Origin: an uncultured Candidatus Binatia bacterium
GTDB taxonomy: Bacteria > Desulfobacterota > Binatia > UBA9968 > JAJDTQ01
DNA length: 64,000 nt
Direction: 5' to 3'
Assembly (NCBI GenBank): GCA_965242525.1
Contig: OZ251459.1
Location: forward strand, 1,504,001-1,568,000
Shown: positions 2,541 to 37,345 of the stretch, in pieces
How positions within the stretch are numbered: position 1 is the stretch's first letter
Layout of the letters: the number at the start of each line of letters is the position of its first letter
The notes under the pieces: generated by a model
What the model was told of the DNA's origin: nothing
What the model saw: only the letters and a program-made list of their open reading frames with translations
The model's database searches: none
Program-made: the position numbers and the translations under genes

Positions 2541-4058
2541 ATGCAGACGGCGCTCGCAGAAGCCGCCCTGAGGGTGACCGACCCGGCCGCCCTGTTCATG
2601 CTGCTCACGGGGACGGCGCTGGGCGTCGTCTTCGGGGCGCTTCCCGGGCTCGGCACCATCACCGCCCTGGCGGTGGTGCTCCCGTTCACCTTCGGCATGG
2701 ACCCCATGCTGGCCATGTTCCTGTACTCGGGCATCATCAGCAGCGGCACGTTCGGCGGGTCCGTGCCCGCCATCCTCCTCAACACCCCCGGCACCCCGCC
2801 CAACGCCGCCACCTGCCTCGACGGCTACCCCATGACCCGCAGGGGCGAGGGCGCCCGGGCCCTGGCCGTGTCCGCAACGGCCTGTTTCGTGGGCTCCCTG
2901 GGCGGCGCCGCGGTCCTCCTGGCCCTGCTCCCCGCGGTCAAGCCGGTGGTGTACGCGTTCGGTCCGCCGGAGTTCTTCTGGCTCGTGGTGTTCGGGCTCG
3001 TGACCATCGCGTTCGCGGCCAAGGGCAACATGGTCAAGGGGCTCGTGGGAGGCGGCCTCGGGATCCTCCTGTCCCTCATCGGGTACACCGAGATGTACGG
3101 CGTTTACCGCTACACCATGGACAGCGAATACCTTTGGGACGGCCTTCCCATGGTCCCCTTCGTCGTGGGGATGCTGGCCGTGAGCGAACTCGTCAGTTAC
3201 TCGGCGAGCGGCGGGATGACGGCGAGCGCGGCGGCCGGCGCCACCGGCGCCGACTGGCGGCGCCAGACGCTCCAGGGGATCCGCGACACCCTCTCCAGGC
3301 CCCTGGCCGCGGCCCGGGCCACGGCCATCGGCGCAGGCATCGGCGTGATCCCGGGAGTGGGAGCCGGGGTCGCCTCGTTCCTCTCCTACGTGGTGGCCAT
3401 CCAGGGCTCGGACGAGCCCGAGACCTTCGGGTCGGGGAACCTCGAAGGGATCATCGCCAGCGAGACCGCCAACGACGCCAAGGACGGGGGTTCGCTCCTG
3501 CCCACGGTGGCCTTCGGCATCCCGGGCAGCGCGGACATGGCCCTGCTCCTCGGAGCCTTCGTCCTCCACGGGTTGCAGCCGGGGCCGCTCCTGCTCCGGG
3601 ACCACATGGACCTGGTCTATGCGCTGCTCCTGGGGATCGTCATCAGCCAGGTGCTCACCAGCGGCCTGGGACTGCTGGCGGTCCCCTGGCTGGCGCGGCT
3701 CAGCACGCTGCCTTCGCGGACCATCGCGCCGTTCGTCCTCGTGCTGGTGTTCGTCGGGATGTACATGCTGCGGAGCAGCATATTCGACGTGGGCCTGGCC
3801 GTGGCGGCCGGCGTCTTCGGCTACTGCATGCGCCGGTTCGGTTTCCCGCTCATCACCGTGGTCATCGGTTTCATCCTCGGACCCCTGGCCGAACAGGCGT
3901 TCCTGCAATCGCTGATGATCTCCGACGGGAGCTACGACATCTTCTACGGCCAGCCCATCGTGGTGGTGCTCATGGTCCTGACCCTCGTCACCGTGACCTT
4001 GCCCGTCGTCAAGTCGCTGCGCCGAAAGGCCGCGGAGAAGGGGGCCGGAGGCCCATGA
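2541..4058 (+). CDS. Tripartite tricarboxylate transporter permease TctA family
   Basis: 'GALPGLG', 'AILLNTPGTP', 'DGYPM', 'ETANDA', 'PTVAFGIPGS'; many TM segments. Confidence 0.93.
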   Translation: MQTALAEAALRVTDPAALFMLLTGTALGVVFGALPGLGTITALAVVLPFTFGMDPMLAMFLYSGIISSGTFGGSVPAILLNTPGTPPNAATCLDGYPMTRRGEGARALAVSATACFVGSLGGAAVLLALLPAVKPVVYAFGPPEFFWLVVFGLVTIAFAAKGNMVKGLVGGGLGILLSLIGYTEMYGVYRYTMDSEYLWDGLPMVPFVVGMLAVSELVSYSASGGMTASAAAGATGADWRRQTLQGIRDTLSRPLAAARATAIGAGIGVIPGVGAGVASFLSYVVAIQGSDEPETFGSGNLEGIIASETANDAKDGGSLLPTVAFGIPGSADMALLLGAFVLHGLQPGPLLLRDHMDLVYALLLGIVISQVLTSGLGLLAVPWLARLSTLPSRTIAPFVLVLVFVGMYMLRSSIFDVGLAVAAGVFGYCMRRFGFPLITVVIGFILGPLAEQAFLQSLMISDGSYDIFYGQPIVVVLMVLTLVTVTLPVVKSLRRKAAEKGAGGP

Positions 4059-4134
4059 GGGGCTCCCTGCCCACCGGACGCTCGCGCCGCCCGCGGCCAC
4101 CTGGAGGAGCCGGAGGCCCATGAAGGGTTCCCTG
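4044..4134. repeat. Direct repeat of the tctA/tctB ATGA junction (26 bp x2, period 65) around a 39-bp insert
   Basis: gccggaggcccatgaggggctccctg (4044-4069) vs gccggaggcccatgaagggttccctg (4109-4134), 24/26 identical. Confidence 0.85.
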
Positions 4135-4644
4135 GCCTTCACCGCGTCGGTGGGCGGGTTCATCGCCCTCCTGCTGTGGGTCGGACTCGGCTATCCTCCG
4201 GAAGTCCAGGTGCTGCCGCTGGTGGTGGGCCTCCCCACCCTCGCGTTGACCCTCGTGCTGCTGGCGGGGGAGTTCCATCCCCCCGTCATGCAACGGCTCG
4301 ACTCCGCACTCGACGACCTCTGGGGCGGCCGCCGGGAGACGCCCGACCAAGCCGCGGATCCGTCCCCGGTCGCGTGGCTCCCGGTCGTGCGCATGATGGG
4401 CTGGGCCGTGGGCTTCTTCGCGGCCGTCTTCCTGCTGGGCATGTTCGTGGTCCCGCCCCTGTTCATCCTGGCGTACCTCGTCACCGAAGCCCGCATGCGT
4501 CCTGCCGGCGCGCTCCTCGCAAGCCTCGCGGCCTCCACCTGCCTCTACGCCGGCATGGCGCTCCTGGGCGTGGACCTTTGGCCCGGCAGCGTCACAGAGG
4601 TGGCGCCCGGGATCCTCGGGGGCGGCATCGTCCCGCCTCTTTGA
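4120..4644 (+). CDS. Tripartite tricarboxylate transporter TctB family small membrane protein
   Basis: Hydrophobic ~4-TM protein directly after TctA. Confidence 0.8.
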   Translation: MKGSLAFTASVGGFIALLLWVGLGYPPEVQVLPLVVGLPTLALTLVLLAGEFHPPVMQRLDSALDDLWGGRRETPDQAADPSPVAWLPVVRMMGWAVGFFAAVFLLGMFVVPPLFILAYLVTEARMRPAGALLASLAASTCLYAGMALLGVDLWPGSVTEVAPGILGGGIVPPL

Positions 4645-4767
4645 GCCGGCCGATTGCGGAACCTCCGGGTTCGCGTTTACAATGGTCTTGCGGCGGTGGG
4701 GGACCGAGGCTTCCGGCCCTTCGCCGACCCGCGCGGCCGTCCGATACCAGTCCGTCAGGAGGGAACC

Positions 4768-5085
4768 ATGGTCTGCAGGATCTTCTGGGGCAAGCTTCGA
4801 CTCGGGAAATGGGCGGAGTACGAGCAGTATTACAACGATGTGGTGGTTCCGGCCACCGCGAACATGCCGGGGTTCCGCGGCCGCCAACTGCTCCAGAGCT
4901 CGGAAAACCCGGACGAAGGGGTCTCCCTCACCTTCTGGGAGACCAAACAGGACATGGAGCAGTACGTGGCCAGCCAGGCCCGGGCCAACATGGTCAAGGG
5001 CGCGGAGAACCTGTACACGGGCGAGTACTGGGTCAAGGACTTCGAGGTGAAGTCCCTGTCCCTGTTGTCCCTGGGGAGCGTGTGA
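4768..5085 (+). CDS. Antibiotic biosynthesis monooxygenase (ABM)-like protein
   Basis: RBS aggagg before ATG 4768; 'MPGFRGRQLL...SLTFWET' ABM-type pattern; 105 aa. Confidence 0.75.
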   Translation: MVCRIFWGKLRLGKWAEYEQYYNDVVVPATANMPGFRGRQLLQSSENPDEGVSLTFWETKQDMEQYVASQARANMVKGAENLYTGEYWVKDFEVKSLSLLSLGSV

Positions 5086-9467: not shown

Positions 9468-9620
9468 GGAAACTCGGAACAATCCCCGCTCGAACCCCAT
9501 CTCCCGTGGAAAAGCGCGTCCTTCGACTTCGCTTCGCTACGCTCAGGACGAACGGAAATAAGGGGTCAGGGTGAGGGGATCGGGAATCCATCCTGGATGT
9601 CTCGATTGTTCAGAGGTTCC
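9468..9620. mobile_element. MITE-like element with IS5-like termini enclosing a family-A REP palindrome (9516-9555)
   Basis: Ends ggaaactcggaacaat ... attgttcagaggttcc are imperfect inverted repeats; TCA on both flanks. Confidence 0.6.
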
Positions 9621-9739
9621 TCAGGACGAACGTGGATAATCGTTCAGGGTTTCCTTTACAGCTTTCAGGGAGCATTACCACGGCTTCCCTGATCCATCGA
9701 GCCGCAGGTGGGCTATTCCCTTACCCTGATCTCCTGTCC

Positions 9740-10006: not shown

Positions 10007-10194
10007 AGTGACATGCGATGGAGTAGAGACTATGACACACACCGCCCGCGCGGTCAAACTTTTCCGCGTCCTTCCGGCTTTCATGTGGGCAAGGCAGGAG
10101 GGGAAGGCAAGCGAAAGGGGTCACGACGTCTTTGCTCCGCAGACGCCTGCCCCGCCATTCCCGCAGACGCGCACCCTCCGTCATTCCTGCGAAG

Positions 10195-10396
10195 CCCACC
10201 TCGTCGTTCCCGCAGACTCCCACCTCGTCGTTCCCGCAGACTCCCACCTCGTCGTTCCCGCAGACTCCCACCTCGTCATTCCCGCAGACTCCCACCTCGT
10301 CATTCCCGCAGACTCCCACCTCGTCATTCCCGCAGACTCCCACCTCGTCATTCCCGCGAAGCCCCACTCCCGTCATTCCCGCGAAAGCGGGAATCC
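10195..10396. repeat. Tandem array of 24-bp units (cccacctcgtc[ag]ttcccgcagact, ~7 copies) ending in a family-B palindrome (gtcattcccgcgaaagcgggaatcc)
   Basis: Units start at 10195, 10219, 10243, 10267, 10291, 10315, 10339; degenerate units extend back to ~10130. Confidence 0.92.
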
Positions 10397-10545: not shown

Positions 10546-10702
10546 GATTCCCGCTTTCGCGGGAATGACGGAGTGGGCTTTTGCGGAATGACAGGGGTGG
10601 GCCTTCATGGGAATGACGGGAGTGGGCTTTCGTGGGAATGACGGAGGGTGCGCGTCTGCGGGAATGACGAGATGGGGCATCTGCGGGAATGAGGAGGTGG
10701 GG
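10546..10702. repeat. Inverted family-B palindrome plus degenerate tandem units (mirror of the 10130-10396 array)
   Basis: ggattcccgctttcgcgggaatgac followed by repeated gggaatgac units. Confidence 0.85.
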
Positions 10703-10852
10703 CGTCCGCGGCGCGCTGCCCGCCGGGCCCGCGCGGTTTGACAAAGCCGGACCGCGCCAGTAACAATCAGGGCCGCGAGGCGCGGGGCGGAACCCGTGAG
10801 CGGAACGGCTCCGCGCTCGCGTTTCCGCGGCCCCGCGCAAGCGGCTCGTTCC

Positions 10853-15838: not shown

Positions 15839-16076
15839 CGTAAACAGACGCCGTGAACATGGTTGCAGTAGCGCAAAAGAATCCGGCCATGCGTCGAAAT
15901 CGTCCGCTGGAACCCATTGCCAGGAGACCCCCCCCCCCCCCCCGTCATTCCCGCGAAGGCATGTCATCGCGGAAGCGGGGACGGGAATCCGCTTTCTTCA
16001 TCGCTCTCGTCGTACAAACATCTCCAGGTCGGATTCCCCTTCTCGGTCAACTCGATCCTCCATGCATGATTCCTCC

Positions 16077-24922: not shown

Positions 24923-24939
24923 GGAAGGCGCGGCGAGGC

Positions 24940-24979
24940 CGGGGGTTTCCCGGAGCCGCGGGGTTCCGGGAAACCCCCG
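24940..24979. terminator. GC-rich hairpin between convergent genes
   Basis: cgggggtttcccgga ... tccgggaaacccccg, 15-bp perfect stem; no U-tract. Confidence 0.55.
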
Positions 24980-24997
24980 TAGCTCCGCGGGAGGGGA

Positions 24998-25489
24998 TCA
25001 GGAGGGTCCGGCGCCGCGGCCCGCCCCCATGATGGACTCGACGATCTTCTTGTAGCCGGTGCAACGGCAGAGGTTGCCGTTCATGTACTCGATGACCTCT
25101 TCTTCCGACGGGTTGGGGTTCTCGTCCAGCAGGGTCTTGGCGGTGAGGATCATTCCGGGAGTGCAGAACCCGCACTGGAAACCGCCGTACTCGATGAAGG
25201 CTTCCTGGAGCGGGTGCAGCTTGCCGTCCTGGGCCATCCCCTCGATGGTGAGTACCTCCTTGCCCCTGGCCTCGAATGCCGGCAAGGTGCACGAGCTCAC
25301 CGGGCGCCCGTCCAGCAGCACCGTGCAGGCGCCGCAGACCTGCACGTCGCAGGAGCGTTTGGCGCCGGTGAGTCCCAGCCGTTTGCGGATCACGTCGAGC
25401 AGGAGCTCGTGCGGCTCCACCTCGATGTCGTGGCGGGTCCCGTTCACGTGGAAGGATAGCGGAAGGGTCTGCCGTCCTCTCTCCGTCAT
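24998..25489 (-). CDS. (2Fe-2S) small subunit, CoxS/CutS family
   Basis: 'SCDVQVCGACTVLLDG', 'QCGFCTPG', 'GNLCRCTGY'. Confidence 0.94.
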   Translation of the reverse strand: MTERGRQTLPLSFHVNGTRHDIEVEPHELLLDVIRKRLGLTGAKRSCDVQVCGACTVLLDGRPVSSCTLPAFEARGKEVLTIEGMAQDGKLHPLQEAFIEYGGFQCGFCTPGMILTAKTLLDENPNPSEEEVIEYMNGNLCRCTGYKKIVESIMGAGRGAGPS

Positions 25490-25527
25490 AGCTGATGCCT
25501 CCGCTCGGTTCGGGCTGGCCGCGCGGT

Positions 25528-26397
25528 TCAACCGGCCAACTCGGCGCGAATGTCGTTGAAGGCCCGGGTCAACAACACCTTGACGATGTGTTCCTTGTAC
25601 TCGGCCGACCCGTGGAGGTCGCTGATGGCGTCCGCGGCCCTGGCGGCCACGTCGCCGGAGTCGGCGATCCGGCTCGCAGCCTCGTCGAAGCCCTTCTGCC
25701 GCAGACCCTCCTCCGCCTCTTCCACCCGCATGGACTTGGGGCCGACGCAGCCCACCGCGATGCGGACGTCGCGCACCGACTCCCGCGCCTCGTCCGCCAC
25801 CACCTGGAGGGCCACCCCGACGCTGGGGCGTTCCAGGTACCCGAACTTGCGGTAGCGGACGGCCGCGTTCCGGTCGGGCAGAGGGACGACGATCTCGGTG
25901 AGGATCTCGTCCTCTTCGAGGGCCGACTCGAAGGCGTCCACGAAGAACCCGGTCATGGGGATCTCCCGTTCCCCGTCCGCCTTCTGCGCCACCACCGAGG
26001 CGTCCAGCGCCAGCAGCAGCGTGCCGGGGTCCGCGTGCGGCTCGGCAAACGTCAGGTTGCCGCCGATGGTCCCCACCTCGCGCACCCGGAGGTTGGCCAC
26101 GTTGCGTTCCATCTCCGCCAGCACCGGCAGCCTGTCCTGCAGCTCCTCGGAACGTTCGAGTTGCCTGTGGGTGGCCAAGGCCCCCAGCCGGAGGCTCCCG
26201 TCGTCCTGCCGGATCCGGTCCAGGCCGGCGATCTTCTTGACGTTGACGAGACAGTCGTAGTGGACCAGCCCTTCCTTCATGGCCAGCAGGAGTTCGGTGC
26301 CCCCCGCATAGACCTTGGCGGAGTCGCCGTAGCGGGCCAGCGCCCGGGACGCCTCCCCGACGCTCTCCGGCTCTTCCAGGCGGAACGGACGCAGCAT
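25528..26397 (-). CDS. FAD-binding medium subunit, CoxM/CutM family
   Basis: 'YAGGTELL', 'REVGTIGGNL', 'DLHGSAEYK'. Confidence 0.93.
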   Translation of the reverse strand: MLRPFRLEEPESVGEASRALARYGDSAKVYAGGTELLLAMKEGLVHYDCLVNVKKIAGLDRIRQDDGSLRLGALATHRQLERSEELQDRLPVLAEMERNVANLRVREVGTIGGNLTFAEPHADPGTLLLALDASVVAQKADGEREIPMTGFFVDAFESALEEDEILTEIVVPLPDRNAAVRYRKFGYLERPSVGVALQVVADEARESVRDVRIAVGCVGPKSMRVEEAEEGLRQKGFDEAASRIADSGDVAARAADAISDLHGSAEYKEHIVKVLLTRAFNDIRAELAG

Positions 26398-26400
26398 GGG

Positions 26401-26853
26401 TCAGGCTCCTCCCTCGAGTTCCTTCTTCACCGCCTGCGCAAAGGCCGCCACGTCGTTGTCGGCCTTGCGTTTGATGATGCTGTGTCCCAGGGTCGCCAGC
26501 TTGCCCAGGATGTCCACGGAAGCGACGAAGGAGACCAGCGTCGAACTCCCCTTCTCTTCCAGGGAAACGTCGAGCTCCACCTTGAGATGGCTGCCGATCT
26601 TGTTGTCGCTGCCCGACGCCCGGGCCTTGATGCGCTGCTTGGGCTCGCTCTCCAACACTTCGATCTTGATGGGGAACGTCACCTTGAAGGGACCCACCCG
26701 GGCCACCATCGTGGCGTTGTAGTGCTTGCCGGCTTCCACGGTGGTCGCTTCCTCGCAACCCGGAACGCAGGAAATCAGCCGGTCCACGTCCCACAGGAAG
26801 TCCCACGCCTTGTCCCGGGGGACGTCGATTTCGATGCTGTTCTCGAAGATCAT
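26401..26853 (-). CDS. CoxG/SRPBCC family protein
   Basis: 'WDFLWDVDRLISCVPGC', 'VGPFKVTF', 'GKLATLG'. Confidence 0.88.
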   Translation of the reverse strand: MIFENSIEIDVPRDKAWDFLWDVDRLISCVPGCEEATTVEAGKHYNATMVARVGPFKVTFPIKIEVLESEPKQRIKARASGSDNKIGSHLKVELDVSLEEKGSSTLVSFVASVDILGKLATLGHSIIKRKADNDVAAFAQAVKKELEGGA

Positions 26854-26886
26854 GTCCGGGTTCTTAGCAGAATCCCGCCCGGAACA

Positions 26887-27867
26887 TCAAGCACGCTCGC
26901 GGAACCCGTCGAGCTGGTCGAACTCCTCCGACAGGTATTTCTTGAGCTTCTTCTTGACCCGGTTCTCGATCTGCCGGACCCTTTCCCGGCTGATGCCGTA
27001 CCGCTCGCCGATCTCCCGCAACGTCAACGGCTGCTCGGCCATCAGCCGTTCCCGGAAGACCACCAGGTCCTTGTCCTCCAGGCCCTCGCCGAAGGTCTTC
27101 AGGCGCTCGCTGACCGCCCGGCGGTACTCGTCCTCGGCCAGGCTCTCTTCCGGGGTCGGGCGGTCGTCCGTCAGCGTATGGAGCAGCGTCGGGGCCTCGC
27201 CGTGACCCATGGGCGCGTCGGTAGAGAGGTCCCGGCCCGAGAGCCGCTGGGTCATCTCCACCACCTCGGACTCCTTCACGTCCAGCCGCTGGGCGATGAG
27301 TTTGGCCGCGGGCACGAAGCCCTCGGCTTCGAGCTTCTCCTTCTCCTTCTGCAGGTTGAAGAACAGCCTCCGCTGGGCCTGGGTGGTGCCCAGCTTCACC
27401 ATGCGCCAGTTGTTCATGAGGTAGCGGATGATGTAGGCGCGGATCCACCAGACCGCATAGGACGGGAACCGCACGCCGCGGTAGGGGTCGAAGTTCTTGA
27501 GGCTCTCCATGAGCCCGATGTTGCCCTCCTGCACCAGGTCCAGGAGGTTCCGAAACGCCCTCTCGTACTCCCGGGCGATCATCACCACCAGGCGGAGGTT
27601 GGACTTCACCAGCTTGTAGGCGGCCTCGATGTCGCCGAACTGCTTGTACTGGACCGCCAACTCGTGCTCCTCCTCGCGCGTAAGCAAAGGGTAGCGGCGG
27701 ATCTCCGACAGGTAGCTTTGTAGCGCGTCGAAGGGAACCAGTGCCCCGGACGGCTCTTCCACGGGGTCGGGGCCGTCCACCTCGTCCAGCAACACCGCAT
27801 CCTCGGACGCCTCCGCAGCCGGAGCATCGATCTCGTCGGCCGTTTCGATGGGTGGATAGACAGCCAT
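26887..27867 (-). CDS. rpoH: RNA polymerase sigma-32 (RpoH-type) factor
   Basis: 'YLSEIRRYPLL', 'SNLRLVV', 'DLVQEGNIGLM', RpoH box 'VKLGTTQAQRRLFFNL', 'ISRERVRQIE'; start uncertain. Confidence 0.88.
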   Translation of the reverse strand: MAVYPPIETADEIDAPAAEASEDAVLLDEVDGPDPVEEPSGALVPFDALQSYLSEIRRYPLLTREEEHELAVQYKQFGDIEAAYKLVKSNLRLVVMIAREYERAFRNLLDLVQEGNIGLMESLKNFDPYRGVRFPSYAVWWIRAYIIRYLMNNWRMVKLGTTQAQRRLFFNLQKEKEKLEAEGFVPAAKLIAQRLDVKESEVVEMTQRLSGRDLSTDAPMGHGEAPTLLHTLTDDRPTPEESLAEDEYRRAVSERLKTFGEGLEDKDLVVFRERLMAEQPLTLREIGERYGISRERVRQIENRVKKKLKKYLSEEFDQLDGFRERA

Positions 27868-28045
27868 GGGAACCTGTCCAACTCTATCGTTTTTGCAGGA
27901 TTTTTTCAATCATCCGGCGCTTGCATTCCCGCACGGGATGACTTATCAACCCACGAGACAACCCGGGAGAAGGAAGACTCGATCATCCAGGGGGTTTCCC
28001 AGGACGGTCGAGCAGGCGCAAACGCCCCGAAACGAGGACGCGGAC

Positions 28046-28588
28046 ATGAAAGAACCCTTCAAGACGGACCTTCAGGAGATCCAGCGGCGGGCCCGGGCGA
28101 AGATGGAGGAAGGCGCCATTACCGGGGCCTACCTTGCCGACCGGGAGCAGGTGCTCGACGTGCTGAACGAGGTGCTGGCCACCGAGATCGTCTGCATCCT
28201 GCGGTACAAGAACCACTACTTCATGGCCAGCGGCATCAACGCCGGGCCGGTGGCCAGCGAGTTCCTGCAGCACGCCAACGAAGAGCAGATGCACGCGGAC
28301 TGGGTGGCCCAGCGCATCACGCAACTCGGGGGCACGCCCAACTTCGACCCGGAGGGTCTCGCCACCCGGTCCCATGCGGAGTACCACCAGGGCGGCTCGC
28401 TGGAAGAAATGATCCGGGAGGACCTGGTGGCCGAGCGGGTGGCCATCGAGACCTACTCGGAGATCATCCGCTGGCTCGGAAACGACGACCCCACCACCCG
28501 TCGGACCATCGAAGACATCCTCAAGATGGAAGAGGAGCACGCCGACGACCTGGCGAGCCTGCTCGTAACCCTCGGAAAGTCCCCTTGA
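28046..28588 (+). CDS. Bacterioferritin/ferritin-like diiron protein
   Basis: 'LATEIVCILRY', 'EEQMHAD', 'DLVAERVAI', 'EEEHADDL'. Confidence 0.9.
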   Translation: MKEPFKTDLQEIQRRARAKMEEGAITGAYLADREQVLDVLNEVLATEIVCILRYKNHYFMASGINAGPVASEFLQHANEEQMHADWVAQRITQLGGTPNFDPEGLATRSHAEYHQGGSLEEMIREDLVAERVAIETYSEIIRWLGNDDPTTRRTIEDILKMEEEHADDLASLLVTLGKSP

Positions 28589-28678
28589 ACTGAAGCTCCC
28601 GCAGTGCGCCCACCGGAAGGGCCGCCACAAGAGAACCTGCCCATCCACGTCCGCACATGGCCCGGAGACGACGGACCG

Positions 28679-28788
28679 GGGGTTCAGCACACGGTTCGCG
28701 CTTCGGGCAAACCGTCCCGGATCGCCGCCTACATCGGCCGCAAGGCATACGGGGTTCAGCACACGGTCCGCGCTTCGGGCAGACCGTC
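28679..28788. repeat. Direct repeat of the cobalamin-binding gene 3' end (38 bp x2, period 72) around a 34-bp insert
   Basis: ggggttcagcacacggttcgcgcttcgggcaaaccgtc (28679-28716) vs ggggttcagcacacggtccgcgcttcgggcagaccgtc (28751-28788), 36/38. Confidence 0.92.
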
Positions 28789-29676
28789 GGGGAGGGGATG
28801 GACGTGGGGGTGGAGGGTGTGGGCCAGGATCTCCAGGCTGTCCACCAACCGCGGGCCGGGGCGACTGAAGTAGGCGTTGCCGTCGAACACGTGGACGCGG
28901 TGCTCCCTCACGCAGGGCAGGTCCGCTGACTCCAATCGGGCCTTCAGCACGGGCAGGTCCTGCAAGGTCCGCGGGATGTCCATGCCGCAACAGGCGACCA
29001 GCAACACCTCGGGCCGCGCCTCGGTGACCGCATCCCAACCGAGGGTTCGGGACGGGCCGTTCCGGTTGCCCAGGCAATCCACGCCGCCGGCCCATTGGAT
29101 CATCTCCGGGATCCAGTGTCCGGCGCTGAAGGGCGGGTCGATCCACTCCAGGAACACGACCCGCGGCCGCCCCTCCACGGGGACCTTCGACGCGGTCCTT
29201 TGCTTGACCGCGTCGAGCCTCGCGGTCAAGCCGGCGACGACGCCCTTCCCCTCTTCCACACGGTCCGTGGCCTTGGCCAACGCGCCTATGGCGGCGAGGA
29301 CGTCCTCCAGGGACGTCGGTTCCAGGTTGACGATCCTCGGCGCGCCCGGCAGGGAGCGGGCCGCCTCGCGCACCTCCGTCTCCGCCACCGCACAGACGTC
29401 GCACAGGGCCTGGGTCACGATCAGGTCGGGGTCGAGCCGTCCCAGGACCTCCATGTCCAGGGAATAGAGCGCCGGGTCGGACCGGAGCCGGCTGCGCACC
29501 AGCCTGTCGATCTCGAGACTGCCGGCGTCGTGGGGAATCGAAGTCCGGGTCACCTTGGGGAGCGCCGAGACCGAAACCGGATGGTCGCATTCGTGCGTCA
29601 CCCCCACGAGTTGCTCGCGCAGCCCCAGCGCACAGATCATCTCGGTGGAACTGGGCAACAGGGAAACGATCTTCAT
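28756..29676 (-). CDS. Cobalamin-binding protein (BtuF-like)
   Basis: 'KIVSLLPSSTEM', 'VGVTHECD', 'TQALCDVCAV', 'FSRPGPRL'; B12 locus. Confidence 0.88.
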   Translation of the reverse strand: MKIVSLLPSSTEMICALGLREQLVGVTHECDHPVSVSALPKVTRTSIPHDAGSLEIDRLVRSRLRSDPALYSLDMEVLGRLDPDLIVTQALCDVCAVAETEVREAARSLPGAPRIVNLEPTSLEDVLAAIGALAKATDRVEEGKGVVAGLTARLDAVKQRTASKVPVEGRPRVVFLEWIDPPFSAGHWIPEMIQWAGGVDCLGNRNGPSRTLGWDAVTEARPEVLLVACCGMDIPRTLQDLPVLKARLESADLPCVREHRVHVFDGNAYFSRPGPRLVDSLEILAHTLHPHVHPLPDGLPEARTVC

Positions 29677-29758
29677 GGACGCGGCTCAGGCGGTGTCACG
29701 GCCCCGGTCGGGGGTTGGCCCGCATGGAGGAAACGATCTTCATGGACGCGGCTCAGGC
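29662..29758. repeat. Exact direct repeat of a stop-intergenic-start junction (30 bp x2, period 67) around a 37-bp insert
   Basis: ggaaacgatcttcatggacgcggctcaggc at 29662-29691 and 29729-29758, identical. Confidence 0.95.
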
Positions 29759-30265
29759 CACCTGCAACGGCCGGTTGCGCCAGGCCTTCATGGTCTCGTA
29801 ACCGCCGAACAGCACGGCGCCGTAGAGCGCATTGCCCGCAAGGGTCCTCCACAGGTAGGGCAGGCCGCTGGCGTAACAACCGGCCAGGCCCTCCCAGGTC
29901 ATGGGCCAAGCCGCGATCCACATGCCGAAATTGGACACCAGGTAGAACGCCAAGGCCGCGGCGAGGACCCCTCCCCCGAAACGGGGGACAGTGCGTTGCT
30001 CGTGCAGGAAGATGCGCCCACAGAAGGCGCTGCAGGCAAAGCCCAGATAGACGAACAGCATCACCACCGGGCTGTAGAGACCCCCGGCCAGGTCGCCCGG
30101 CAGGAGGGCCGCCAGCGGCAACAGCCATGCCCAACGCCTTGCGACATAGGCGCCGGCGAACAAACCCAGGGCCCCCACCGGCGTGACGTTCAACGGATGC
30201 GGCATGACCCTCGACGCGGCTACGATGACGACCAGGACGCATAGCCCTGCGATGTTGCCCTTCAC
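29753..30265 (-). CDS. DUF6580-like putative membrane transport protein (B12-associated)
   Basis: 'SRVMPHPLNVTPVGALGLFAGA', 'FYLVSNFGMW', 'GLAGCYASGLPY'; GTG start assumed. Confidence 0.75.
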   Translation of the reverse strand: MKGNIAGLCVLVVIVAASRVMPHPLNVTPVGALGLFAGAYVARRWAWLLPLAALLPGDLAGGLYSPVVMLFVYLGFACSAFCGRIFLHEQRTVPRFGGGVLAAALAFYLVSNFGMWIAAWPMTWEGLAGCYASGLPYLWRTLAGNALYGAVLFGGYETMKAWRNRPLQVA

Positions 30266-30288
30266 GTTCTCCCCCTCGCTGTTCTTGC

Positions 30289-30398
30289 GGAAACCCTGAA
30301 CCATTGTCCCCGTTCGTCCTGAGCGTAGCGAAGCGAAGTCGAAGGACGCACTTTCCCACGGGGAGAGGGAGTTGAAGCCGGAATTGATCAGACGTTCC
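30289..30398. mobile_element. 110-bp MITE-like element (IS5-like ends + family-A REP)
   Basis: ggaaaccctgaaccatt ... attgatcagacgttcc; REP at 30310-30349. Confidence 0.65.
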
Positions 30399-30413
30399 TT
30401 ACGTTCCCGAAGG

Positions 30414-30572
30414 TCACAGGATCAGCTTCACCAGCGCGACGGTGAGGCTGGCGGTGAAGCCCACGATGCCGATGGCCATGATCCAGAGGTGGCGATAGAG
30501 GACTGAAAACTGGTCCGCCATTTCGGCGCGAAGGCCGCTCATGTCGGCCTTGGTAGCGACGTTCCCGGTCAT
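30414..30572 (-). pseudogene. Short DUF1640/CCDC90-like fragment
   Basis: 52-aa ORF MTGNVATKADMSGLRAEM...LYRHLWIMAIGIVGFTASLTVALVKLIL; 'ATKAD' + C-terminal TM; appears N-terminally truncated. Confidence 0.5.
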
Positions 30573-30694
30573 GGCGTCACCCACTGGCCCATCACTACGA
30601 CACGCGAACCGGGACTTGTCAAGGTCCGACGCGGTTGACAGAGCCGCCCGACCGGGGTAAACCCCATCCGTACTTGGGCGGTCTTCGTTACCGC

Positions 30695-30860
30695 CCGGTC
30701 CCCGGGTCCCTCACGGGATAACAGGGAAACCGGTGAAAATCCGGTGCGGTCCCGCCACTGTAAATGGGAACCCTTGCCCTGAAGCCACTGTCCCCCGCAC
30801 GGGATGGGAAGGCGGCAAGGTCGTCGTTGCGACGAGCCCATGAGCCAGGAGACCTACCTG
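30695..30860 (+). ncRNA. Cobalamin riboswitch upstream of tonB
   Basis: aacagggaaaccggtgaaaatccggtgcggtcccgccactgta ... agccactg ... tgggaaggc ... gagccaggagacct (B12 box); ends approximate. Confidence 0.93.
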
Positions 30861-30978
30861 GGGACGGAACGAAGCCGTGCTCTCCGAGGAGAGAGGAGGT
30901 CTCGCCATTCCATATTCCTCCACAGACGTGACGCATCCCCGTTCCGCGGCGCTTCCCTGACCGGCCGCCGGGAGTGAG

Positions 30979-32013
30979 ATGCGCTTCCTCTGCTTCCTGC
31001 TGGGCTCCGCCCTGCTCCATGCGGCGTTCCTCGCCCTGCCCCTGTCCACGAGCACGGGCGACGCCGGAAAGAACGCCCTGCAACCCCTGCGGGTCCGCCT
31101 GCTGGCCCCCGGGATCCGTAAGGCTGAAGCGGCGAACATGAAGACGCCGCGTCAGCCGGCGCTCCGGGAGCACGGGTCTGCCGGTGGAGCCGCAAGGACG
31201 GAGAGGCCGCAGCCCGCCTCCAGGACCGACGAAACCGCGTCAGGGCAGGTTGCCCGAGAGCGGCCGCAAGCCTTGGCCCAGGACCGGGCCACGCTTGCAG
31301 TTCGGTCTCCTGCGACGCGATCTCCCGCAGCGCCGGAGGCGCTCGGCGAATCCGGGGCGAGGGGAAAGGCATCGCGTAAGGCAAGGAAGCCGGCCCGGGT
31401 CGGGCCGGAGCCGCGGACGCCCAGGGCGCCGAAGACCGAGTCGGTACGCGCGCGGTCCGGCGCGCTCCCGGCGGACCTTGCCGTTCCCCCCGCGCCCGTG
31501 CGGGCGGCGCTGCGGACGAGTATCGCGGCTGCGCCGGCGCCGAAGACGCCGGACGGACCCGGCCAGGACCGCGGCCCCACCCGGAGCGTCGAAGGACCTC
31601 CGGGCAAAGATCCCGGCCGCGAACGGGAGCCGTGGACAAGTCCGGGCGGCGAAACCGCGCTCGCCCTTGCCTCGGACCCGGAACGCCGTCGGGGACCGCG
31701 GGCAAGTCCGGGCCGGGACGCCGGGGCGGCGCGTACCCCGGTGCGCTATGCGCGCGTGGTCAAGCCCAAGTACCCCCGGAAGGCGCGGACCCAGGGATGG
31801 GAGGGGACCACGGTCCTGAAGGTGCGGGTGGATCGCGGGGGAAGGCCCGGCCTCATCGCGGTGGACCGCACCTCGGGGTTCGAGGTCCTCGACCGCGCGG
31901 CCATGAGGGCCATGAGTCGATGGGAGTTCCATCCCGCGCGCAACGGCGACAGGACCGTAGCGAGCTGGGTGGAGGTCCCCGTGTCGTTCCGGCTCGAGGA
32001 GGACCCACCATGA
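30979..32013 (+). CDS. tonB: Energy transducer TonB
   Basis: N-terminal TM with 'SALLHAA', long Pro/Ala/Arg linker, TonB_C 'PKYPRKARTQGWEGTTVL...LDRAA...WEFHPAR'. Confidence 0.88.
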   Translation: MRFLCFLLGSALLHAAFLALPLSTSTGDAGKNALQPLRVRLLAPGIRKAEAANMKTPRQPALREHGSAGGAARTERPQPASRTDETASGQVARERPQALAQDRATLAVRSPATRSPAAPEALGESGARGKASRKARKPARVGPEPRTPRAPKTESVRARSGALPADLAVPPAPVRAALRTSIAAAPAPKTPDGPGQDRGPTRSVEGPPGKDPGREREPWTSPGGETALALASDPERRRGPRASPGRDAGAARTPVRYARVVKPKYPRKARTQGWEGTTVLKVRVDRGGRPGLIAVDRTSGFEVLDRAAMRAMSRWEFHPARNGDRTVASWVEVPVSFRLEEDPP

Positions 32014-32053
32014 AGAAGTAGCGTCACGCCATCGGAGTCAACCACACGGACGT

Positions 32054-32200
32054 CCGGAGACGGATTCCAGGGAAAGGGGTGAAACGCCCCTGCTGCCCCG
32101 CAACTGTAACGGCCACGAAAGCTGCCACGGAGAGCCACTGCCCCTGCGGGGGCGGGAAGGCGCAGCGATTAGGATGAAGCCGGAGCCAGGAGACCTGTCC
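32054..32200 (+). ncRNA. Second cobalamin riboswitch upstream of the TonB-dependent receptor
   Basis: cagggaaaggggtgaaacgcccctgctgccccgcaactgta ... agccactg ... gggaaggc ... gagccaggagacct; ends approximate. Confidence 0.9.
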
Positions 32201-32243
32201 GTCTGCCGCCAACAATCCGCCTTCGCGGGAAAGGAAGATTGCC

Positions 32244-34235
32244 ATGAAGTTTTCGACCCACGGTTTCGTCACCACCCACGGTTTCACCACTCTCCTGGTT
32301 TTCGTCGCCCTCCTGGTCCTGTGGACCTTTCCACCCGGGGCCGCGGCGGAAGCGCCGCAAAGCGCCGCTTCCCCGCCCGCCGCGGACGAGGCCGCGGAAC
32401 GGCTTCCGGAGATCGTGGTCTCGGCAAGCCGGACGCCCCTGGAAGCCCGGGCCGCGGGCAGCGCCGTCACCGTCATCACCGCGGAAGAGCTGGAGCGCAA
32501 GCAGGTGCGCGTGCTCTCCGACGTGCTGCGGGAGGTGCCCGGGCTGGCGGTGAGCCGCTCGGGCACGGTGGGCGCCTATACCCAGGTGCGGATCCGCGGC
32601 GCCGAGGCCAACCACACCCTGGTCCTCATCGACGGGGTGGAAGTCAACGACCCCAGCGGCAACTCGGAATTCGACTTCGCCGACCTGCTCGCCGCGGACG
32701 TGGAACGGGTCGAGGTCCTGCGCGGGCCCCAGAGCGCGCTGTACGGCAGCGACGCCATCGGCGGCGTCATCAACGTCATCACCCGGAAGGGGCGCGGCCC
32801 CGCGGCCGCAAGCCTTCGACTGGAAGGCGGTTCCTTCGGCTCCGGCGAGGTCTCCGCGGGCGTCCGCGGCGCGGGCGAGCGCTACCACTTTTCGTTGGGC
32901 GGGACGGGCTTCCGGACGTCCGGCGTGTCCATCGGGTCCCCGTCCGGGGGGAAGCCGGAGAAAGACGGCTACCGGAGCCACGGTTGGCGCGCCCGGCTCG
33001 GCGCCGACCTGCTCGAAGACCTGGAAGTCGAGTTGCTGGGGCGCTACGTCCGCTCGAAAGTGGAGACGGACCCGGGAGGCCTCGTCGGCGACTTCCGCAT
33101 ACCGGTGGACGGGGACGACGAGACCCGGGGGACCCGGTGGAGCGGACGCGCCCGGCTCGCCTACAGCCTGTTCGACGGAGCGTGGGAGCACAGGCTCGGA
33201 GCCGGAACCAGCCGGAAGAAGCGGGGCTACTTCAGCGCGGGAAGCCGGACCTACGAAGCCGAAGGCGCGAGGTCGCGCTTCGACTACCAGACCAGCGTCT
33301 TCTTCGACACCGAGGCCCTCGCGGACGCGGCCCATTCGTTCACCTTGCTGGCCGAGCGCGAGAAGGACTCCCAGACCGCCGGCGGCGCGCAGTCCGACGT
33401 GACCGGCTACGGCTACACCGGAGAGTACCGGGTGGGCGTGTGGGAGCGGCTCTTCCTGTCGGGCAGCGTCCGCTTCGACGACAACGACCTCTTCCGGGAC
33501 GCCGTCACCTTCCGGGCCACCGCGGCCTACCTGGTCGAAGGGAGCGGGACGCGGCTGCACGGCAGCTACGGCGCCGGGGTCAAGAACCCCACCCTGTTCG
33601 AGTTGTTCGGCTTCGCCCCGGGCTTCACCCCCAACCCCCGCCTCACCCCCGAGAAGAGCAACGGCTGGGACGCGGGAATCGAGCAGCGCTTCTTCGACCA
33701 ACGCCTGACCGTGGACGTCACCTACTTCGACAACCGGATCCGGGACCACATCCAGGGGTCCTTCGACACCTCCGTCAACCTGGACGGCGTCTCCGAAATC
33801 CGGGGCGTGGAGACCACCCTGAAGGCGCGCGTCACGCCGGCCCTGACCCTCACCGGACAGTACACCTGGACCGACGCCAAAGACCCCATGGGCATGGAGC
33901 TGACGCGGCGGGCGCGGCACGTGGCCAGCGCCCATCTCGCATGGGAGGTCCTCGACGGCCGGGCCGAGCTGGGGCTCGGCGTCCGCTACAACGGCCGACA
34001 GCAGGACCTCCGCTTCCACGGCGACTACAGCACGAGCCGCGTGACCCTGGACGACTTCGTCCTGGTCAACCTCACGGCCTCCTATGAAACGGCCCCGGGG
34101 GTCGAACTCTTCGGCCGCGTGGAAAACCTGCTGGACCAGGACTACCAGGAGGTCTTCGGTTTCCGCAGCACCGGCATCGGCGGTTTTTTGGGCATTCGAT
34201 GGACCCTGGAGCCGCTCACGGTCCCGTCCGGATAG
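32244..34235 (+). CDS. btuB: TonB-dependent receptor, BtuB-like
   Basis: 'IVVSASR', plug 'IRGAEANHTLVLIDG', 'VEVLRGPQSALYGSDAIGGVINVIT', 'ENLLDQDY'; riboswitch upstream. Confidence 0.85.
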   Translation: MKFSTHGFVTTHGFTTLLVFVALLVLWTFPPGAAAEAPQSAASPPAADEAAERLPEIVVSASRTPLEARAAGSAVTVITAEELERKQVRVLSDVLREVPGLAVSRSGTVGAYTQVRIRGAEANHTLVLIDGVEVNDPSGNSEFDFADLLAADVERVEVLRGPQSALYGSDAIGGVINVITRKGRGPAAASLRLEGGSFGSGEVSAGVRGAGERYHFSLGGTGFRTSGVSIGSPSGGKPEKDGYRSHGWRARLGADLLEDLEVELLGRYVRSKVETDPGGLVGDFRIPVDGDDETRGTRWSGRARLAYSLFDGAWEHRLGAGTSRKKRGYFSAGSRTYEAEGARSRFDYQTSVFFDTEALADAAHSFTLLAEREKDSQTAGGAQSDVTGYGYTGEYRVGVWERLFLSGSVRFDDNDLFRDAVTFRATAAYLVEGSGTRLHGSYGAGVKNPTLFELFGFAPGFTPNPRLTPEKSNGWDAGIEQRFFDQRLTVDVTYFDNRIRDHIQGSFDTSVNLDGVSEIRGVETTLKARVTPALTLTGQYTWTDAKDPMGMELTRRARHVASAHLAWEVLDGRAELGLGVRYNGRQQDLRFHGDYSTSRVTLDDFVLVNLTASYETAPGVELFGRVENLLDQDYQEVFGFRSTGIGGFLGIRWTLEPLTVPSG

Positions 34236-34315
34236 GCGGACCCTTCTCGCCGCTCACGGCTCTACCATCCTTCCCGGCTGGAGCCGTTCACGGTCCCGTC
34301 CGGGCAGGCGGCCCC
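34206..34315. repeat. Direct repeat of the receptor gene 3' end (38 bp x2, period 72) around a 34-bp insert
   Basis: ctggagccgctcacggtcccgtccggataggcggaccc vs ctggagccgttcacggtcccgtccgggcaggcggcccc, 34/38. Confidence 0.9.
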
Positions 34316-34343
34316 GCGGGACCCCTGCCCACGGGGCCGCGGT

Positions 34344-36107
34344 TCACTCCGCCAGCAGCGGCACCACCCGGCGCTCCTTGGCGCGCACGAGGCCGCGGCC
34401 CGTGATGCGGAGCTCCGGGAGGGTGACGAAGGTGAGGAAGCATAGGGCGTAGAGGGGCTTGGGGAAGGCGGAACCGCGTTCCCTCAGGGTCCGCTGCACC
34501 GCGGCGAGCCGCTCGCCCACGAGGCGCCAGGGCTCCGGCGAGAACAGGCCCCCGATGGGGAAAGGGAGGTGTTCGAGGACCCGGCCCCGGTCCACCACCG
34601 CGACGCCGCCGCCGGACTCCAGCAGGAGGTTGGCGCAGCGGGCCATGTCGTAGTCGCTGGAGCCCGCCACCAGCAGGGCGTACTCGTCCAGGTTGACGGT
34701 GGTCCCCACCGCGCCCACGTCCGCGCCGAGACCCCGGACGAAGCCGAAGGCGGGACGGAAGCCCTCCCCCCGGTCGAACACCGCGACCTTGAGCAAGTCC
34801 CGGTCCGGGTCCGCGGGAAGGACCCCGCCGGGGGCGGCCGACTCCACCACCCGCTCCCGGGTGATGGTCTGGTTGGCGAGGTCCATCACCCGCACCCGCG
34901 CACGCGGGCGGTCGCACCCTATCCTCAGGTCGTCCGCGGTGACCGGCTGGCGGAAGGCGGTCCTGATCCCCATGTCCGCGGGAAAGGGAGGCGGCGCGGC
35001 GTCCACCTTCGACTCGCCGCCTTCGGCCACCGGCTCGCCGCCGATGAACACCGCGCCCACCCGCACGGTCTCCAGGTCTTCGAGCAGCGCGAAGTCGGCG
35101 AACCGCCCGGGCGCCACCCCGCCCATGTCCTGCTCCAGGCCGGAGTACATGGCGGGATGGAGGGTGGCGGCCTGGATGGCGCGCACCGAACCCAGGCCGC
35201 ACTCCACCGCGCGGCGCACCACGAAGTCCATGTGGCCGGACGCGGCCACGTCGTCCGGGGCCATGCCGTCGGTGACCAGTATCAGCCGCCCGGTATCGAT
35301 TCCGCTCGCCAACAGCGGCTTGAGCGTGGCCTCCAGGTCCTGCCGGAAGGAGCCCTCCCGCAGCATGGTCCAGTAGCCGAGCCGCAGGCGCGCCAGCGCC
35401 TCCGCGCCGCTGATGGGCTCGTGGCACGACGACACCGAAGCCGCGGCAATGGCGTTCAGCCGGCGGTCCCGTGCCCCCGCGGTGTGTCCGTGCACGATCT
35501 TGCCCCGGTCCAGGGCCATGTGGATGCGCGCCAGCAGGTCCGGGTCTCCCTGCACCAGCCGGAGCCACGAGACCACCTCCCCCAGGCCAAGGACTCGGGG
35601 GTCATCCAGGACGTCCGCCACCTCCCGGTCCGACAGGGTCTCGGTCCGGCACAGCAGCGGGTCCTGGGGCGCGGCCATGGACACCAGTGTATGGACCCGG
35701 ATCGGGTGGCTCGCAGCCTCCTCCAGGAACAGCTTCATGCCGGCGAGGCCGAAGGCCACCGTGTGCTCGTCGCACGAAGCCACGACCCCGGTGGTCCCGT
35801 GGGGCAGGTACGCCTGCAGGAACTCGAAGGGGCGGCAGAAGTGGCCGATGTGGGTGTGGGCGTCGATGAACCCGGGGACGATCCAGCGGTCCCGGGCGTC
35901 GATGACCCGGGTCTCCTCCCCGCGGGTGTGGGCCGCGCTGGGACCCACGTAGCAGACCCGTCCCCGGCTGAAGGCCACCTCCATGCCCTCCAGCACCTCG
36001 CCCGTATAGACGTTGACCAGGCGCCCGCCGGTGACCACCCCGTCGGCCTTGACCTCGCCCATGCTGGCGCGCATCAGGCGGCGGATGCTCTCCCCGGTCT
36101 TCCGCAT
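34344..36107 (-). CDS. Adenine deaminase (Ade) family amidohydrolase
   Basis: 'PGFIDAHTHI', 'LGLGEV', 'GHT', 'SCHE', 'LREGS', 'LVTDG', 'APGRFADF', 'LPELRIT'. Confidence 0.88.
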   Translation of the reverse strand: MRKTGESIRRLMRASMGEVKADGVVTGGRLVNVYTGEVLEGMEVAFSRGRVCYVGPSAAHTRGEETRVIDARDRWIVPGFIDAHTHIGHFCRPFEFLQAYLPHGTTGVVASCDEHTVAFGLAGMKLFLEEAASHPIRVHTLVSMAAPQDPLLCRTETLSDREVADVLDDPRVLGLGEVVSWLRLVQGDPDLLARIHMALDRGKIVHGHTAGARDRRLNAIAAASVSSCHEPISGAEALARLRLGYWTMLREGSFRQDLEATLKPLLASGIDTGRLILVTDGMAPDDVAASGHMDFVVRRAVECGLGSVRAIQAATLHPAMYSGLEQDMGGVAPGRFADFALLEDLETVRVGAVFIGGEPVAEGGESKVDAAPPPFPADMGIRTAFRQPVTADDLRIGCDRPRARVRVMDLANQTITRERVVESAAPGGVLPADPDRDLLKVAVFDRGEGFRPAFGFVRGLGADVGAVGTTVNLDEYALLVAGSSDYDMARCANLLLESGGGVAVVDRGRVLEHLPFPIGGLFSPEPWRLVGERLAAVQRTLRERGSAFPKPLYALCFLTFVTLPELRITGRGLVRAKERRVVPLLAE

Positions 36108-36154
36108 GGGTCCGGCCTCGGGCGCCGCCCTGCCGGCGGCGGCCTTCCGCGGCG

Positions 36155-37144
36155 TCAGATCTTGAACCCTTCGCGGGTGTTGGGCGCGTACAGGCCCGCC
36201 ACGTCCACCGGGTTCCGGATCACCCCCTGCTCCAGCAGGTAGGAGTGGAAGGTCTCCAGGGTCTTGCGGTTGCCCTCAAAGCCGTAGGGCCAGAAGTCCT
36301 CGCCCATGAGATCCACGGTCTCCTCGTACTCGAACAACTGCCAGAGCTGGCTCGTGCGCAGCACGTTGGTGTCGTAGAGCTGGGCCGCGCACAGGTCCTT
36401 GGCTTGGCAGAACGCCTTGTAGAGGTTTTGGGTGATCCACGGGTGGGCCTCGTAGATCTCCCGGCGCACCACCACGCAGTGCATGATGGGGAACAGCCCC
36501 GTGCGGCGGAAGTAGTCCATCTCCGCGGCCCGGCAGTCCTCGAACAGGCGGGTGATCCCGGAAGCGCGCCGGACGAAACAGGCGGGCATCCGGGCCGACA
36601 CCAGGGCGTCGATGTCGCCCGACTCCAGCATGTCGTTCAGGGTCCGGCGTTCCTCGGTCTCCATGGACACGCCGTCCGGAGGGTCGAAGGGCACCCGGTC
36701 CTTGCGCCCCGGCTGCTCCACCCCGCCCTGCACCCAATGGACGTCCCCGGGCTCCACCCCGAAGTCGTGCTGGAGCATGCCGCGCACCCACACGGACGCG
36801 GTCATGGTGTACTCGGGCACCCCCACCCGCCGGCCCTTCAGGTCCTCGGGCCTGCGCACCCCCGAAGCGGCGTTGACGAATATGCAGCGGTGGCGGAACA
36901 TGCGGGAGGGAAAGACCGGTATGGCGATGAAGGGCCGGTGGCCCCGGGACGCGTCCACGTGGTACGCCCCCATGGACATCTCCGCGGCGTCGAACTCCCG
37001 GAAATGGAGCATGCGCCAGAAGATCTCCTCCACGGGCAGCACCACGTAGTGGAGGTCGATGCCTTCGGGCTTCACCAGCCCGTCCTTCAGGGCCCGGGTG
37101 CGGTCGTAGTCCTCGCAGGCCAGCGTCAACTCGATGTTGCCCAT
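36155..37144 (-). CDS. 4,5-dihydroxyphthalate decarboxylase-like / substrate-binding-fold protein
   Basis: 'LTLACEDYDRTRAL', 'IPVFPSRMFRH', 'VGVPEYTMTASVWVRGML', 'FPIMHCVV', 'FWPYG'. Confidence 0.82.
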   Translation of the reverse strand: MGNIELTLACEDYDRTRALKDGLVKPEGIDLHYVVLPVEEIFWRMLHFREFDAAEMSMGAYHVDASRGHRPFIAIPVFPSRMFRHRCIFVNAASGVRRPEDLKGRRVGVPEYTMTASVWVRGMLQHDFGVEPGDVHWVQGGVEQPGRKDRVPFDPPDGVSMETEERRTLNDMLESGDIDALVSARMPACFVRRASGITRLFEDCRAAEMDYFRRTGLFPIMHCVVVRREIYEAHPWITQNLYKAFCQAKDLCAAQLYDTNVLRTSQLWQLFEYEETVDLMGEDFWPYGFEGNRKTLETFHSYLLEQGVIRNPVDVAGLYAPNTREGFKI

Positions 37145-37168
37145 GACTCCCTCCGGCGCCCTGCCCTG

Positions 37169-37345
37169 CCCCTACGCACCGGGGCGGGGCGCAGCCAACG
37201 CATCGTTGAGTCGGTCGAGCGGTAGGTTGGCGGCCTTCCGCTTCCCCCAGGCGCCGGGGCGGGCGGCCAATGCATCGGCGCTTCGGAGTAGCTGCGGCAT
37301 TGGGCCGCGCTTCCCCTACGCGCCGGGGCCGGGCGCGGCCAACGC
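37169..37345. repeat. Three direct copies of the aldolase gene 3' end separated by unrelated ~30-35 bp inserts
   Basis: cccctacgcaccggggcggggcgcagccaacgc (37169), cccccaggcgccggggcggg---cggccaatgc (37244), cccctacgcgccggggccgggcgcggccaacgc (37313); first-to-third offset 144. Confidence 0.85.

Follow-up and report, generated by a model that had tools for sequence, protein, structure and literature searches.

Probable footprints of off-target spacer integration at genes and gene ends of a Candidatus Binatia chromosome

In a 64,000-nt stretch of the chromosome of an uncultured Candidatus Binatia bacterium (assembly GCA_965242525.1, contig OZ251459.1, here C1:1504001-1568000; hereafter the window, with coordinates counted from its first letter), short segments of native sequence occur as direct repeats around unrelated DNA. 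We call such a locus-specific direct repeat an arm, the unrelated DNA between two arms the insert, and the sum of arm and insert the period. Judged from the sequence comparisons described here, these units are very probably the footprints of off-target, non-canonical spacer integration by Cas1-Cas2, the adaptation enzymes of CRISPR (short palindromic repeats that are clustered and regularly interspaced) systems, at ordinary genes and gene ends. Relative to related genomes, units are insertions accompanied by a duplication; across the 4.23-Mb genome (67% G+C) they fall into size classes, inserts at 20 loci outside the window are copies of the cell's own chromosome, and the genome encodes two Cas1-Cas2 modules, whose enzymes are the putative agents of insertion.

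Results

Duplicated gene ends around unrelated inserts

A repeat search recovered all five clear loci of a preliminary description of the window, at 4041/4106, 28679/28751, 29662/29729, 34206/34278 and 37158/37233/37302, with the periods given there (65, 72, 67, 72 and 75+69), along with direct repeats at 19870/19916 (period 46) and 20935/20996 (period 61). The five units are the following, with gene families named by Pfam:

4041-4137, plus strand: unit 1, period 65; arms 4041-4072 and 4106-4137, insert about 4073-4105; the first arm holds the TGA stop of a TctA gene (2541-4058), the second the ATG of the next gene (4120).
28679-28788, minus strand: unit 2, period 72 (38+34); arms 28679-28716 and 28751-28788, insert 28717-28750; arm 28751-28788 holds the stop (28756-28758) of a periplasmic-binding-protein gene, and arm 28679-28716 is a vestigial copy downstream.
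29662-29758, minus strand: unit 3, period 67; arms 29662-29691 and 29729-29758, identical at 30/30 positions, insert 29692-29728; arm 29662-29691 holds the start (29674-29676) of the periplasmic-binding-protein gene 28756-29676, and arm 29729-29758 the stop (29753-29755) of a DUF6580 gene.
34206-34315, plus strand: unit 4, period 72 (38+34); arms 34206-34243 and 34278-34315, insert 34244-34277; a TonB-dependent receptor gene has its TAG stop (34233-34235) within arm 34206-34243, and arm 34278-34315 lies between two convergent genes.
37158-37345, minus strand: unit 5, three copies at about 37158-37201, 37233-37270 and 37302-37345, periods 75 and 69; copy 3 holds the stop (37316-37318) of gene 37316-38734, which has a KDPG-aldolase domain.

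When the loci of the window were compared with themselves at a shift equal to their own period (diagonal comparison), the arm edges were sharp at all five clear loci and the inserts had no in-register similarity to their flanks; the split into 38+34 bp, reported earlier as exact for two loci, proved correct for 28679 and 34206. Open reading frame coordinates and sequence also bear out that six of the eight repeats first described span a stop codon, namely those at 4041, 28679, 29662, 34206, 37158 (in copy 3) and 19870. Assuming duplications of 28 or 37 nt, the inserts of the window would measure 37, 39, 35, 35 and about 35-38 nt.

Single copies in relatives and strains

We compared the window with 27 congeners, with the closest relative, G036, which shares 85-93% identity over the syntenic parts of window 19000-38500, and with contigs from the public runs X2, X4, X5 and X6; the X5 contigs were too short to span any unit. 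Four of the five clear loci (4041, 28679, 34206 and 37158) are derived insertions, with the single copy lacking an insert that the preliminary description had anticipated at orthologous loci. At 4041, all seven congeners holding the locus (L019-L025) have one copy in a multiple alignment, with an overlapping ATGA stop/start and without the 65 bp, and a search with window 3300-4900 returned two pieces in each of them (n = 7), which overlap by 27-32 nt at this point and are 65 bp apart in the window. The ATGA that is single in the seven relatives is thus duplicated in the window, direct support for the earlier suggestion that such units survive at gene ends through a rebuilt stop and start. The unit at 34206 is missing from G036, where the duplicated segment occurs once, and is carried by the strains of both X4 and X6; an exact empty site was not obtained there from species-level relatives, whose intergenic DNA is too diverged. 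At 37158, the three copies of the window correspond to one in G036; in an X4 contig 37185 is followed, after 2 letters, by 37335, and X6 has the full set of three; unit 5 is the product of two successive insertions at one site, in agreement with the repeated use of a site that had been proposed for it. At 28679, an X6 contig (record 29) has 28 letters against the window's 97 (28654-28750), about one 72-bp unit fewer.

For 29662 no comparable empty site is available, because the surrounding segment 28589-30407 is missing in G036, and no orthologues of it occur in the 27 congeners; the aligned piece of the X6 contig ends at 29661, the arm edge of this unit, which we take as a hint only. This 1.8-kb segment carries two genes, for the periplasmic binding protein and the DUF6580 protein, and stops at a dispersed repeat. 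Two loci beyond the window, 3308953 and 4048080, likewise have one copy in G036.

Contigs from X2, an independent sample, are identical to the window across its loci, indicating that the assembly is sound and that the duplications are not the artefacts against which the preliminary description had cautioned. Sequence nearly identical to window 19000-38500 occurs in public runs labelled as sponge metagenomes from several studies, and the strains vary in the units they carry; none of the public runs listed is of RNA.

A genome-wide excess at spacer-like periods

At each period between 25 and 300 the whole genome was scanned, periods 2000-2275 serving as control, and arms were kept if they had at most two occurrences in the genome. 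This yielded 313 near hits, of which 261 had an insert of 6 nt or more, compared with 31 hits in 276 control periods. As expected from the preliminary description, the distribution is not flat: it peaks at periods 60-78, where 89 unique-arm hits fall into 19 periods against the 31 in 276 control periods, about 40-fold more per period, and the units are therefore more numerous than chance would give. After merging, 99 single-hit loci remained, 46 of them at periods 60-78, 17 at 25-59 and 10 at 79-130.

Genes were called with a crude caller based on G+C at third codon positions (GC3), which gave 3173 genes and 85% coverage. Units inside called genes (22/46) have a period divisible by 3 in 19 of 22 cases; among the units outside genes (24/46) this holds for 7 of 24, with periods clustering at 61-64 and 69-75.

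Our catalogue comprises 65 loci, six of them window entries added by hand; four were dropped, namely the protein sub-repeats 2409318, 2564269 and 2500134, and the window locus 31625. In the resulting 61 loci, median arm lengths are 24.5, 30 and 35 nt at periods 59-64, 65-70 and 71-78 (Mann-Whitney p = 2e-4 for 59-64 against 71-78), and median insert lengths are 36, 37 and 38 nt across the same three groups. At periods 61-62 the arms measure about 28-30 nt and the inserts 32-33 nt. The hairpin propensity of the arms is only slightly higher than random (p = 0.03) and than that of stop-codon neighbourhoods (p = 0.0016), an observation that we do not use as evidence.

Two resident CRISPR-Cas systems of partly matching dimensions

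The genome has two Cas1 loci, both outside the window and each followed by Cas2 and an array; a third Cas1 was not found in it. For Cas1, the gene covered by this check, the earlier statement that the window is free of cas genes thus holds, and the alternative offered at the time, an unknown Cas1-like integrase, is not supported. Array A1 (C1:435890-439400) has 54 copies of a 28-nt repeat; its period is 63-69, and its spacers measure 35-41 nt (mode 37). It adjoins Cas1 and Cas2 (C1:434339-435737) together with weak matches to Cas7 and Cas3' of a type I-D-like kind, and belongs to a divergent I-D-like system. Array A2 (C1:754990-765420) has 140 copies of a 37-nt repeat at a period of 71-78, its spacers being 34-41 nt long (mode 37), and adjoins a clear type I-G set consisting of a Cas4g/Cas1g fusion (773 bits), Cas3g, Csb1/2 and Cas2, with Cas4/1-Cas2 at C1:752769-754780. 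The comparison of unit periods with canonical repeat-plus-spacer lengths gave a divided answer: in the window, periods 65 and 67 lie within the A1 range and 72, 72 and 75 within the A2 range, while genome-wide the groups at 61-62 and at 66 stay outside. With a 28-nt duplication, the insert of unit 1 (4041) would be 37 nt long, the modal spacer length of A1.

Across the 191 canonical spacers, not one is matched over its full length on the chromosome. A1 spacer 5 matches the small contigs C4 and C6 at 35/37 nt; the contig pairs C3/C5 and C4/C6 share sequence and may be copies of a mobile element targeted by A1. Within A2 (C1:755300-755520) the same spacer occurs twice, two units apart, and there are more internal duplications near 759295 and 765374.

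Type I-E Cas1 was found above cut-off in 8 of the 27 congeners and not in this genome. At C1:500376-500525, three palindromic but degenerate repeats, spaced at periods of 61 and 60, resemble a decayed array, with no cas genes nearby; they may be what remains of a type I-E-like array that was lost.

Inserts copied from the chromosome

A BLAST search of the genome with the inserts as queries, a k-mer scan for short, isolated duplicates and unit-source alignments showed that at 20 loci, all outside the window, the insert is a sharp-edged, near-identical copy of unique chromosomal sequence elsewhere, 29-42 nt long and with unrelated flanks. These sources define duplications of 25-29 nt and of 33-38 nt, compared with 28 and 37 nt for the repeats of the resident arrays; unit sizes are, for example, 36+37 nt at C1:3308953 and 37+37 nt at C1:1571780. 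At C1:608173-608330, three repeats of native sequence and two spacers form a mini-array, a further instance of repeated use of one site; its spacers were copied from C1:3238388, inside the Hsp70/dnaK gene, and from C1:2327665. As to the direction of copying, strictly two-copy isolated duplicates (26-52 nt, n = 54) had flanking arms (score at least 13) in 16 cases, always at one copy only, compared with 39 of 4000 random positions. The search for the origin of the inserts, called for in the preliminary description, succeeded at these 20 loci and yielded no source for the inserts of the window itself, as detailed below.

That canonical spacers lack self matches while these inserts are self-derived is expected if self-derived spacers are lethal in a working array and harmless at sites that are not processed, as we infer here.

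Weaker loci and other repeats of the window

Three loci had been described as weaker examples:

20935-21027, no strand assigned: candidate unit, period 61, upstream of an epimerase gene; arms of about 32 nt with 88% identity, insert of about 29 nt.
19870-19960, no strand assigned: near-tandem 46-bp duplication at the 3' end of an epimerase gene, its copies separated by only about 13 nt.
31625-31720, no strand assigned: weak 66-bp repeat, about 80% identical over 26 nt.

Only the first is kept, as a period-61 candidate without a clean empty site. We rejected 19870 as a spacer-insertion unit on account of its insert of about 13 nt, and 31625 as a recent insertion, since both copies are colinear in G036 at 84% identity. 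The statement that the units represent neither one MITE (miniature inverted-repeat transposable element) family nor tandem slippage stands at the clear loci; similarity over the whole period, as in a tandem duplication, is seen only at 19870. Per the catalogue, 8 units lie in 33 kb of the window against 0.5 expected, an excess biased by ascertainment because six window entries were added by hand from the preliminary description, about four of the units being found by the blind scan.

The window also contains two families of dispersed repeats, both excluded from the genome-wide unit counts. The first, with a unit of about 33 nt (61894-61960, 30300-30350 and 9520-9650), is often tandem at 33, 66 and 99, has hundreds of copies genome-wide and is also present in G036. 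The second has a 24-25-nt unit (10137-10382, 10553-10711 and 16085-16133), forms inverted tandem blocks of at most 10 copies and occurs at many further genomic sites. A run of 16 C lies at 15928-15943.

Discussion

In the mechanism that we propose, Cas1-Cas2 loaded with a spacer-sized fragment of about 32-40 nt would attack both strands of a non-CRISPR site at two points a set distance apart, the distance being fixed by the enzyme's ruler, and gap filling would then duplicate the intervening stretch to leave an arm-insert-arm unit. The long class, with duplications of about 35-38 nt and periods of 72-75 (28679, 34206 and 37158 in the window), would match the type I-G module; in the short class, with duplications of about 27-30 nt, periods of 63-67 (4041 and 29662) would fit the 28-nt-repeat system, and members at 61-62 would plausibly fit a type I-E-like module that the lineage has probably lost. 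Since the new arms are not CRISPR repeats, self-derived inserts would presumably not be processed into guides and would be tolerated, and selection would retain insertions that preserve the reading frame, that fall between genes, or that hit gene ends whose stop and start are rebuilt by the duplication. The suggestion of ectopic spacer acquisition with a ruler-set duplication, made in the preliminary description, has gained considerably from the empty sites at four of the five clear loci, the two Cas1-Cas2 modules and the 20 self-derived inserts.

Several observations weigh against off-target spacer integration as the origin of the units. The shared protospacer adjacent motif (PAM) that had been anticipated did not emerge: the 20 sources have no consistent motif, with TTN directly adjacent in 2 of 6 long-arm sources, a small sample, and the short-arm sources show no clear PAM motif. 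For the inserts of the window, the genome contains no source (only chance matches of 15-20 nt), phage records gave nothing or 24/26 nt at E = 0.03, an exact scan of metagenome contigs gave no match, and insert 29692-29728 was not found with up to 3 mismatches in the 27 congeners. Compared in register, on both strands and with slack, the arms have no excess similarity to either CRISPR repeat over 3000 random positions; the sole outlier, the arm at 4041, matches the 28-nt repeat at 17/28 positions (99th percentile of the control, 16), which is unremarkable as one among about 60 loci tested. The arm medians of 24.5 and 35 nt fall short of the 28- and 37-nt repeats, a shortfall that we ascribe, by assumption, to trimming of diverged ends. 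Nine to 11 loci at periods 61-62 fall short of the range of 63-69 seen in the resident 28-nt-repeat array and need an extra assumption, and the period-66 group (arms 36-39 nt, inserts 27-30 nt) is outside the type I-G range of 71-78 and fits no resident range. Empty-site comparison is uninformative at 608173, 1349408, 1871938 and 3560316, where the regions are not colinear in G036, and at 1484773, which is absent together with a dispersed repeat; it is ambiguous at 4045024 and 4048243, and at 20935 the intergenic region of G036 differs and offers no clean empty site. Finally, the gene calls are crude, and at least one 'inside' call (4045024) looks wrong.

Some of these points would suit an agent other than Cas1-Cas2, a non-Cas integrase or transposase that makes long staggered cuts and captures short DNA fragments: no PAM was found, the arms lack similarity to CRISPR repeats, and the 61-62 bp class matches neither resident array. 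We nevertheless regard such an enzyme as improbable, given that the two classes of duplication length lie close to the repeat lengths of the two resident arrays, that the inserts have the length of canonical spacers, and that the genome is without a third Cas1; the type I-E Cas1 of the congeners and the I-E-like remnant at C1:500376-500525 also give the 61-bp class an explanation within CRISPR. To our knowledge, no known transposase yields 28- or 37-nt duplications around a 35-nt cargo. Errors of repair or replication, such as template switching or end-joining with filler DNA, can likewise leave a duplication with a captured fragment, and the 1-5 nt that some inserts share with the arms at their junctions are readable as microhomology; such errors predict neither the narrow, two-class duplication length, nor a constant insert of about 36-38 nt, nor the sharp peak with 46 single-hit loci at periods 60-78 against 10 at 79-130, and we consider them quite improbable as the source of the units.

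Two other accounts fare less well still. Full-length tandem duplications with a diverged middle, or internal repeats of proteins, do occur in this genome, 2409318, 2564269 and 2500134 being true protein sub-repeats inside genes and 19870 near-tandem; at the clear loci they are already contradicted by the sharp arm edges and the lack of in-register similarity between insert and flank, and the arms of 29662, 100% identical around an unrelated insert, and the 20 inserts from distant loci make them highly improbable as a general explanation. An assembly artefact or chance similarity, to which only the weak locus 31625 lends itself, has a next to negligible probability in view of the identical X2 contigs, the units carried by the X4 and X6 strains and the roughly 40-fold enrichment per period. 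Two further candidates were rejected: a canonical CRISPR array, as the arms are locus-specific native sequence in 2-3 copies each with no repeat similarity beyond control, and a MITE or insertion sequence (IS) element, as the inserts are unique and multi-copy matches come only from the two excluded dispersed families.

Returning to off-target integration by Cas1-Cas2, we incline on balance, though with modest confidence, to a joint reading in which, in this lineage, the adaptation enzymes act as a recurrent natural mutagen that has left about 60 spacer-sized insertions in this chromosome. Such insertions would uncouple overlapping genes, extend gene ends, may add in-frame stretches of about 22-25 residues and would seed small arrays. 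Together they would form an archive of naive, largely self-derived acquisition that has not been filtered by autoimmunity, and the 61-62 bp class may record a lost type I-E system. With dozens of dated footprints in one genome, identified protospacers and empty sites in relatives, target choice and the ruler length of each CRISPR type become measurable, as do PAM use without selection for interference, the mutational load of an active adaptation module and the way in which new arrays arise. From their size signature alone, such footprints could also reveal past CRISPR systems.

Direct duplication of the target around inserted DNA is also the hallmark of transposon, MITE and casposon insertions. 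The units described here share this arrangement and differ in their cargo of 30-40 nt, which is unique to each locus and belongs to no family, and in duplications far longer than typical; no terminal inverted repeats were noticed in the inserts as listed, for which no dedicated scan was made. Canonical adaptation by the Cas4/1-Cas2 complex of type I-U/I-G is directed to the leader-proximal repeat, and 50-80% of the spacers show a TTN PAM (Almendros et al. 2019, PMC6547450). It shares with the present case the protein family, a system with 37-nt repeats and a spacer length of about 36 bp, whereas here ordinary genome sites are targeted and TTN is clear in only 2 of 6 sources. Ectopic acquisition inside arrays, reported for Streptococcus thermophilus and S. 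mutans (PMC7999890, PMC5338259, PMC8265633), resembles the present units in that integration takes place away from the leader-proximal repeat; those events use genuine CRISPR repeats, whereas here locus-specific non-CRISPR DNA is duplicated.

The nearest precedent is off-target integration in Escherichia coli over-producing Cas1-Cas2, which can spawn neo-CRISPR arrays (Nivala, Shipman and Church 2018, as reported in 10.1101/148544 and PMC7054753) and for which the evidence in two other species is called only 'circumstantial' (10.1101/148544). The process is therefore not undescribed, as the preliminary description had supposed: off-target integration founding neo-CRISPR loci is credited to that study. 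Prior demonstrations were made mainly with over-produced E. coli enzymes, and a limited literature search found no natural genome-wide cases. Both settings have in common a spacer-sized insert, a duplication of a non-CRISPR site, here of roughly repeat length, and reuse of a site that can seed a small array. While the E. coli events reportedly involve a type I-E system with over-produced enzymes, the units described here are natural, number about 60 in one genome, and are attributable to a type I-G Cas4/1-Cas2 and a 28-nt-repeat system, possibly also to a lost I-E, with many self protospacers and visible effects on genes. With the process itself known from E. coli, what is new is its natural record: the size of that record, its attribution to other CRISPR types, the self-derived spacers and the gene effects that can be read from it.

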